Below, piece by piece: positions 41,770 through 42,620 of a DNA stretch of 43,616 bases. The notes beneath the pieces were generated by a model. The model saw only the letters and a list, made by a program, of their open reading frames with translations. It was not told where the DNA came from and ran no database searches. Origin of the DNA: Escherichia coli (GTDB lineage Bacteria; Pseudomonadota; Gammaproteobacteria; Enterobacterales; Enterobacteriaceae). The first letter of the stretch is position 1; every line of letters begins with the position of its first letter. The stretch lies in NCBI RefSeq assembly GCF_003334305.1, contig NZ_QOWS01000029.1; one strand, 5' to 3'. A program made the translations under genes and the position numbers.

Positions 41770-41913
41770 TGGATGATGAAAAAAATAATTCCCGCCGTAG
41801 TCTGTTTGTTGCTTTGTAGTTGCACGACCTTTCCGCAAGCTGTCGCTCCGGTAAACGGTGATGCCTCCAATTAGTTGAATTAAGGATATAATACTCGCTT
41901 TTAAGGTTGTTTC

Positions 41914-42186
41914 ATGGTCACAGTTAACCTTCATTGCCCCCGTTGCCAGTCCGTTCAGGTTTACCGTCACGGGCAGAACCCAAAAAGACATGATCGATTC
42001 CGCGGCCGTGACTGTCACCGGGTATTTCAGCTCAGTTACTGTTACGAGCCCCGTAAACCGGGAGTTAAAGACCAAATCGCTGAAATGACTTTCAACGGTG
42101 CCGGGGTTCGCGATACTGCCCGTACGCTGAAAATCGGCATTAATACAGTCATCCGAACTTTAAAAAACTCTCGCCACGAAGAATAA
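41914..42186 (+). CDS. insA: IS1-family InsA (zinc-finger/HTH transposition regulator)
   Basis: 90-aa ORF with CxxC...C..H zinc-finger-like N-terminus and HTH (GVRDTARTLKIGINTVIRTLK), then the A6C slippery motif tttaaaaaactc at about 42159..42170 as in IS1. Confidence 0.85.
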   Translation: MVTVNLHCPRCQSVQVYRHGQNPKRHDRFRGRDCHRVFQLSYCYEPRKPGVKDQIAEMTFNGAGVRDTARTLKIGINTVIRTLKNSRHEE

Positions 42187-42620
42187 CGTCATCCCCGGTC
42201 GCTCATGCTGATGTGGCACTCATCTGCAAACTTAGTCAGCAATGGAGCTTTGTCGGCAGTAAAGCGCGACAGCACTGGCTCTGGTACGTGTACAACACGA
42301 AAACTGGTGGTGTTCTGGCCTACACTTTTGGCCCCCGGACTGACGAAACCTGTCGTGAATTGCGGGCGCTGCTTACCCTTTTACCATCGGCATGTTGACC
42401 ACTGACGAATGGGGTAGTTACGCTAGAGAGTTACCGAAGGAGAAGCATCTGACTGGTAAGATTTTTACTCAGCACATTGAGCGTAACAATCTGACCCTGA
42501 GAACCCGAATCAAACGTCTGGCCCGCAGAACCATCTGTTTCTCGCGTTCTGTAGAACTTCATGAAAAAGTCATCGGTGCTTTTATCGAAAATATATGTTC
42601 TACTAATTGGAGTCATCACC
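42159..42620 (+). pseudogene. insB: IS1-family insB frame, apparently interrupted by an extra frameshift near 42385..42400
   Basis: The -1 frame after the A6C motif reads InsB-like sequence (…ICKLSQQWSFVGSKARQHWLWYVYN…FGPRTDE…) to a stop at about 42399. InsB-like sequence then continues in another frame (MLTTDEWGSY…IERNNLTLRTRIKRLARRTICFSRSVELHEKVIG). Confidence 0.55.

Follow-up and report, generated by a model that had tools for sequence, protein, structure and literature searches.

A frameshifted IS1H-type element without a target-site duplication at the yiiX border of the RhsF island in Escherichia coli

Introduction

The window analyzed here is a 43,616-bp stretch of Escherichia coli DNA, near the end of which the conserved backbone running through metJ and yiiX gives way, across an IS1-family element, to an Rhs module. 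The locus raises the question of whether an IS flanked by unlike sequences marks a chromosomal rearrangement or the edge of an accessory island, and of what happened to the DNA that once adjoined it. A first-pass annotation had regarded the expected neighbor rpmE as absent and had proposed that the met region was brought next to an rhs locus by IS-mediated deletion or inversion or by recombination of two IS copies. These proposals are weighed below against the anatomy of the element, its flanking genes, the gene order in complete genomes, and the distribution of the two IS junctions.

Results and Discussion

Identification of the IS1-family element

The element occupies 41857–42620 on the + strand (764 bp). 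Both these coordinates and the near-identical inverted ends noted in the first-pass annotation held on end comparison, in which the left end, GGTGATGCCTCCAATTAGTTGAA, and the reverse complement of the right end, GGTGATGACTCCAATTAGTAGAA, agreed at 21 of 23 positions and at 18 of the first 19. The length is close to the ~770 bp of IS1 and the ends align with those of IS1A. The following features were distinguished within the element:

41857..41879, + strand: left terminal inverted repeat, IRL-like, adjoining insA (end comparison)
41914..42186, + strand: insA, intact ORF of 90 aa with a zinc-binding N-terminus (ORF list, NF033558 match)
42162..42168, + strand: A6C motif (AAAAAAC) just ahead of the insA stop (sequence; conserved in the IS1A alignment)
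42213..42620, + strand: insB' region, broken by one extra frameshift at ~42370–42398 (ORFs, NF033558)
42598..42620, - strand: right terminal inverted repeat, IRR-like (end comparison)

The NCBIfam profile NF033558 "IS1 family transposase" was matched by three ORF fragments in three reading frames, at profile positions 1–81 (85.4 bits), 95–148 (63.5 bits), and 155–199 (58.4 bits); each fragment fell below the 100-bit whole-protein cut-off because the transposase gene is split over the three frames. The IS1/IS1595 zinc-binding domain was also detected, and the organization was that of IS1, with insA in frame 1, the first insB' fragment in frame 0, and the A6C motif between them. The element at 41857–42620 is a member of the IS1 family. 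In IS1 the A6C motif is the site of programmed -1 frameshifting, and one of the two frame changes probably corresponds to this normal shift. The other, at ~42370–42398, is an inactivating lesion that divides the insB' region into a frame-0 ORF at 42213–42398 (profile 95–148) and a frame-2 ORF from 42392 (profile 155–199). The intact transposase expected of an autonomous element was lacking, and the RefSeq label is "frameshifted."

At the DNA level the element is 51.8% identical to IS1A and 98.6–100% identical to its counterparts at this site in other genomes, for which the RefSeq name is "IS1 family / IS1H family transposase, frameshifted"; same-site copies labeled "IS1-like element IS1H family transposase" are 98.3–98.6% identical. 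It shares with IS1H the insA, A6C, and insB' components and inverted ends of ~23 bp starting GGTGATG, and differs from it in the extra insB frameshift and the missing target duplication. The same-site copies of strains A7, ATCC 8739, O157:H7, and 23AR0303 were all 764 bp long, with a divergence of 0–1.4% and no indels between them, and therefore the insB frameshift is shared and old. The O157, phylogroup-A, and 23AR0303-type copies lay 1.3–1.4% apart and had the broken insB in common. The element is an old, dead, and fixed IS1H-type element. Maintenance of insA by selection was considered for the one intact ORF; the three nonsynonymous and two synonymous differences from the O157 copy, very small counts in themselves, speak against it.

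Absence of a target-site duplication

The 9-bp outer flanks of the element, CCGGTAAAC on the left (41848–41856) and CTTCTGATA on the right (42621–42629), matched at only 3 of 9 positions, and no direct word of at least 6 nt was common to the two 20-bp flanks. As the flanks differ to this extent, there is no target-site duplication, in agreement with the first-pass annotation. The direct repeat of 8–9 bp left by a simple IS1 insertion was thus lacking at this element; such a repeat is a property of the insertion event and not of membership in the IS1 family. Recent insertions in the same region served as controls. An IS1A in strain 8600 interrupts the intact form of the TIGR02117-family gene described below and is bounded by a perfect 9-bp duplication, CGAGGCGGG, and an IS1F lying inside the same-site IS of strain FXCREC123 is bounded by an 8-bp duplication, CGCAGAAC. 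Since recent IS1 insertions in the region keep their duplications, the missing repeat at the window element is meaningful, and it is not a product of how the ends of the element were read.

Genes on the two flanks of the element

The genes beside the element, from the backbone side to the end of the window, were as follows:

41162..41769, + strand: yiiX, last backbone gene ahead of the island, frameshifted here (two overlapping ORFs)
41776..41856, + strand: 5' remnant of a TIGR02117-family gene, 27 codons, with a lipoprotein-like signal peptide (alignment)
42676..42998, - strand: dsORF-f3, frameshifted here (RefSeq "RHS element protein dsORF-f3")
43000..43616, - strand: 3' end of an Rhs core gene with a predicted C-terminal toxin tip (translation, profile matches)

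On the left flank, the backbone gene metJ precedes yiiX, which in the window consists of ORF halves of 149 aa and 82 aa. The gene is annotated in RefSeq for A7 as the pseudogene "YiiX family permuted papain-like enzyme, frameshifted" and is intact (609 bp) in K-12, BL21, ATCC 8739, and O157:H7. The short remnant that follows aligns, as far as the last base before the IS, with the start of a 624-bp gene that is intact in BL21 and D6; the BL21 protein scores 225 bits against TIGR02117.

On the right flank, dsORF-f3 ends 55 bp from the IS, and the flank downstream of it starts with CTTCTGATAAGCTTTCC. Its frameshift is a difference of A8 versus A9 in a homopolymer run near 42790–42800, which could be a sequencing error or real phase-like variation; the gene is intact in ATCC 8739 and 23AR0303 and frameshifted also in O157:H7. 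From its position it is the presumed immunity gene of the Rhs tip. The Rhs gene leaves the window and reaches window-equivalent position 47184, and its full coding sequence of 4185 bp is annotated in A7. The core matched the RHS_core and Rhs_assc_core profiles, and the tip of 147 aa after the core end matched Pfam DUF4329 (E = 4.9e-16). The Rhs module that the first-pass annotation had seen to the right of the IS was accordingly borne out, with its DUF4329 tip and dsORF-f3.

The RefSeq name dsORF-f3 points to the RhsF element of the Hill laboratory, which was reportedly first described by Zhao and Hill in 1995; a full-text literature search for "dsORF-f3" returned no match. All the hallmarks of RhsF were present, namely the site between yiiX and rpmE/priA, the core end motif PxxxxDPxGL, a variable tip, and a small downstream ORF. 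Among the conserved rhs loci of E. coli, of which Jackson et al. (2009; PMC2935791) list 11, the yiiX/priA site is position 11, and an rhs gene has been reported at b3936–b3937 in strains W and Crooks (ATCC 8739) (Archer et al., 2011; PMC3032704). The window agrees with RhsF, i.e., rhs position 11, in the yiiX–rpmE site, the DPxGL core end, the variable tip, and dsORF-f3 and differs from it in nothing essential, representing a short form that comprises dsORF-f3, the IS, and a single full-length Rhs gene.

The metJ–yiiX spacer (41103–41161) measures ~60 bp in the window, O157:H7, and D6 and ~184 bp in K-12, BL21, and ATCC 8739, a 124-bp indel that is possibly a small repeat element of the ERIC/IRU kind. 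At window positions 8138–10702, argH is separated from oxyR by manD (D-mannonate dehydratase) and a gene for an MFS transporter; in K-12 argH presumably adjoins oxyR, and the manD/MFS pair looks like another small accessory insertion.

Collinearity of the yiiX–rpmE interval

The window is the reverse complement of positions 212580–256195 of E. coli A7 (NZ_CP028767.1), with 43,616 of 43,616 bases identical, so that the gene order beyond its end can be read from that genome. The A7 order is metL, metB, metJ, yiiX, the IS1-family pseudogene, dsORF-f3, the Rhs core gene, and rpmE, followed by priA, cytR, ftsN, hslVU, and menA. The rpmE gene lies at window-equivalent 47344–47556, ~3.7 kb past the window end and ~4.7 kb after the IS, and seemed to be missing because the window stops inside the Rhs gene; its supposed absence was therefore an error of the first-pass annotation. 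The same rpmE-priA-cytR-ftsN order after the Rhs gene was found in O157:H7 FRIK2533 and ATCC 8739. The synteny break that had been suggested does not exist, the core genes rpmE, priA, cytR, and ftsN standing in K-12 order past the Rhs gene. The locus is a 5.4-kb insertion or replacement between neighboring core genes, and the met region has not been joined to a distant rhs locus, as the island is local and sits at a published rhs site.

Three haplotypes were recognized between yiiX and rpmE. K-12 has nothing between the yiiX stop and the rpmE terminator, in agreement with the first-pass annotation, which expected rpmE as the next core gene on the basis of that strain. BL21 and D6 carry the intact 624-bp TIGR02117-family gene, a haplotype present in 288 of 5426 complete E. 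coli genomes, and the third haplotype consists of the IS and Rhs module, as in the window. By pairwise BLAST and reading of the alignment, homology to BL21 ends at the last base before the IS and picks up again precisely at the rpmE terminator, CAGGCACAAAAAAAGCGCC; to the right of the IS, the flank has no similarity to the BL21 sequence beyond the junction point. Compared with BL21, 550 bp (543 nt of the gene plus 7 nt) have been replaced by an island of 5440 bp, in which the IS accounts for 764 bp and the Rhs module for 4676 bp. This loss of 550 bp relative to BL21/D6, beginning at the left IS end, supports the earlier view that the element is not a simple insertion.

The three haplotypes meet at one and the same nucleotide before the rpmE terminator (CAGGCAC...). 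Homology to other Rhs loci (rhsB, rhsC) stops ~14 bp upstream of the Rhs start codon, and ~90 bp adjoining the rpmE terminator, on the Rhs side, occur at this locus alone. The interval is a small replacement hotspot with three alternative contents.

A long form of the island was found in strain 23AR0303 (L007:8003-14617), with the order full Rhs gene, sel1-repeat gene, Rhs fragment, ISAs1/H-rpt pseudogene, ybfB, and an orphan Rhs fragment that carries the DUF4329 tip, followed by dsORF-f3 and then the IS. This long form resembles the composite structure of classical Rhs elements, and it suggests that the short form arose by recombination of the main Rhs core with the orphan fragment. As a separate observation, E. 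coli WL297 (NZ_CP128613.1, 4465161–4465215) matched only the first 55 nt of a 60-nt left-flank probe, at a place with no annotated feature, and may hold a different truncation of the TIGR02117 gene.

Distribution of the junctions

The frequency of the junctions was assessed in 5426 complete E. coli genomes, the two IS junctions with probes of 120 nt that were counted when matched at near full length:

Left IS junction: 2175/5426 genomes
Right IS junction: 2169/5426 genomes
Right-flank DNA, any occurrence: 2171/5426 genomes
Rhs-upstream/rpmE junction: 2177/5426 genomes

Both IS junctions thus occur at identical nucleotides in ~40% of complete E. coli genomes, and carriers include O157:H7, O55:H7, O26, O103, O111, SE11, and ATCC 8739. 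An event peculiar to one strain does not fit these counts; the junctions, identical in 2169–2175 of the 5426 genomes, are old.

The right flank was nearly always accompanied by the IS, with 2169 of the 2171 flank-bearing genomes having the IS junction, and near and distant BLAST together with the junction query of the 5426 complete genomes detected no right flank lacking the IS. Among 100,044 species-representative genomes, an exact 24-mer of the flank sequence matched once, at the same junction, and it also occurred in 29 metagenome contigs, in all 29 of which the right end of the IS abuts the flank. The same junction without an IS, which the first-pass annotation had named as evidence that would speak against its reading, was sought in both genomes and metagenome contigs and was not found. 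The species-representative match is a 2240-bp contig, SFGN01000258.1 (L013), from a "Lachnospiraceae bacterium" MAG that is 99.9% identical to the E. coli locus; it is a binning contaminant in that collection.

Combinations of the haplotypes were equally absent. No intact TIGR02117 gene was found beside the Rhs module, all 288 genomes with the intact gene having rpmE directly next to it, and the missing 550 bp were not found elsewhere in carrier genomes, which hold only the 5' remnant and the rpmE-proximal piece.

These data bear on a simple insertion whose duplication has since decayed by mutation, or on an artefact of assembly, for both of which the age of the element is the only argument. 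On the left, the flank is identical to the unbroken BL21 sequence as far as the IS, while on the right it is unlike the BL21 continuation, and copies that are only ~1.3% apart have diverged far too little to erase a 9-bp repeat. The junction is moreover reproduced in thousands of independent complete assemblies and in the 29 metagenome contigs. Both origins are excluded by these results.

Other copies of the element and mosaic contigs

A single copy of the IS per whole genome was found in ATCC 8739, M8, GE3, FORC_069, NCCP15648, and RM10466. Published counts give a single IS1H for strain W and a single partial one for Crooks (Archer et al., 2011; PMC3032704), and the count for Crooks fits the single ATCC 8739 copy found at the yiiX–rpmE site. 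A second old lineage of the same subtype, 92% identical, was identified in LS45 (L010:3001-3763) and GF60 (L011:3001-3763), where the frameshifted copy adjoins a truncated transketolase gene and a YadA-like adhesin gene and also has no target duplication (TATGAATAC / TTCGTTTGT). Fragments of the subtype that are 90% identical, also decayed, occur on pO157-type plasmids. No intact copy of the IS1H-type subtype was seen in the E. coli loci examined.

Mosaic copies were observed in two metagenome contigs, L030 (OERM01000926.1, 1–3843) and L033 (OGXH01008892.1, 1–2721), that combine the RhsF-type right part of the IS and its right flank with a left IS part from a different IS1H-type lineage. Their left flanks are unrelated, being a YadA-like adhesin locus in L030 and the region of an AraC-like regulator in L033. 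Both contigs come from low-coverage short-read assemblies and the switch of partner lies inside the repeat; for these reasons they are more likely assembly chimeras. There is a slim chance that they are real, in which case dead IS1H relics would still recombine and move the RhsF tip to other islands, and the IS–IS rearrangement proposed in the first-pass annotation would occur in other gut strains and not in this window.

The distribution of copies also bears on an inversion, or a recombination between two IS copies, that would have brought a distant rhs locus next to the met region at the expense of K-12 synteny. The lack of a target-site duplication agrees with such an event, and the mosaic contigs, if real, would show IS–IS recombination within the subfamily. 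Set against this, the genes to either side of the 5.4-kb island stand in K-12 order, the IS occurs just once per genome in several carriers, the 3' part of the TIGR02117 gene has not been relocated anywhere, the junction is unchanged in ~2170 complete genomes, and the mosaic contigs carry the typical signature of assembly chimeras. A rearrangement of this kind is contradicted by the place of rpmE beside the Rhs gene in A7 and is highly improbable. From the mechanisms put forward in the first-pass annotation, the association with a deletion is retained, and the single-copy carriers make an inversion, or a reciprocal exchange between IS copies, unlikely.

Origin of the junction

The observations to be explained are the anatomy of the element, the 550-bp loss, the collinearity on both sides, the frequency and invariance of the junctions, and the lesion shared by the same-site copies. 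The best explanation, with a probability of about 0.7, is that the IS is the dead border element of the RhsF island on its yiiX side and that an old IS-associated deletion took place at the edge of the island; the missing duplication and the 550-bp loss that starts exactly at the left IS end fit such a deletion. In the ancestor, yiiX and rpmE would have been separated by the TIGR02117-family gene together with the Rhs module. The IS may have entered the TIGR02117 gene itself or a site immediately downstream of dsORF-f3, and a deletion associated with it would then have removed the DNA on one side of the IS, by intramolecular transposition with adjacent deletion or by recombination of two direct IS copies leaving one. 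The DNA lost would comprise one of the two copies of the target repeat, the 3'-terminal 543 nt of the TIGR02117 gene with a further 7 nt, and possibly DNA downstream of the Rhs module. A later 1-nt frameshift in insB would have killed the element, and the resulting haplotype was presumably inherited and spread by recombination to reach the present ~40% of E. coli.

Adjacent deletion by intramolecular transposition belongs to classical IS1 genetics. Its outcome is the same as that seen in the window, with the IS and one flank kept, the neighboring DNA lost, and no duplication; the difference is that here only the presumed product is available, no pre-deletion allele having been found. As no intermediate allele was found, the order of events, the deletion mechanism, the side of the loss, and the part played by the IS are inferred. 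Points against an IS-associated deletion are this lack of an intermediate and the ~90 bp of locus-specific sequence beside the rpmE terminator. In addition, the copy at the YadA locus also has no duplication, which may be general among old island copies, and the missing duplication therefore proves no one specific mechanism.

The main rival to an IS-associated deletion is the arrival of the IS and Rhs module as one unit that replaced the 3' part of the TIGR02117 gene in the process, either by composite or one-ended IS1 transposition or as a preassembled haplotype brought in by homologous recombination in yiiX and rpmE, with the IS never having inserted alone at the yiiX–rpmE site. The constant association of the IS with the Rhs flank (2169 of 2171) agrees with this proposal, as does the absence of an IS-less state from the 5426 genomes, the species representatives, and the metagenome contigs, and the convergence of the haplotypes at one nucleotide before the rpmE terminator suits a cassette-like replacement. 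The structure is nevertheless not that of a composite transposon. No other IS1-like end was found within the window, and no second IS end or copy was found at the rpmE side of the island. The outer borders likewise show no duplication (CCGGTAAAC on the left versus ...AAATTA|CAGGCAC on the right), and transposition of the unit alone would not delete 550 bp. In addition, Jackson et al. (2009; PMC2935791) trace positions 10 and 11 to duplication of position 5, the rhsC locus, rather than to an IS-borne unit. Arrival as one unit is on balance unlikely, although it deserves more weight than any of the other alternatives, and an old IS-associated deletion at the edge of the RhsF island is preferred.

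Implications

The feature is already known and common, and its rhs locus has been published; it has little significance beyond annotation and raises no new question on IS1 or Rhs biology. The seeming loss of synteny near the cut end of the window turns out to be a widespread accessory haplotype at the yiiX–rpmE interval, a known hotspot. The junction can serve as a handy and stable marker of the IS1H plus RhsF haplotype carried by ~40% of E. coli, and the locus offers a textbook case in which an IS relic without a target duplication marks an old deletion at the border of an island.
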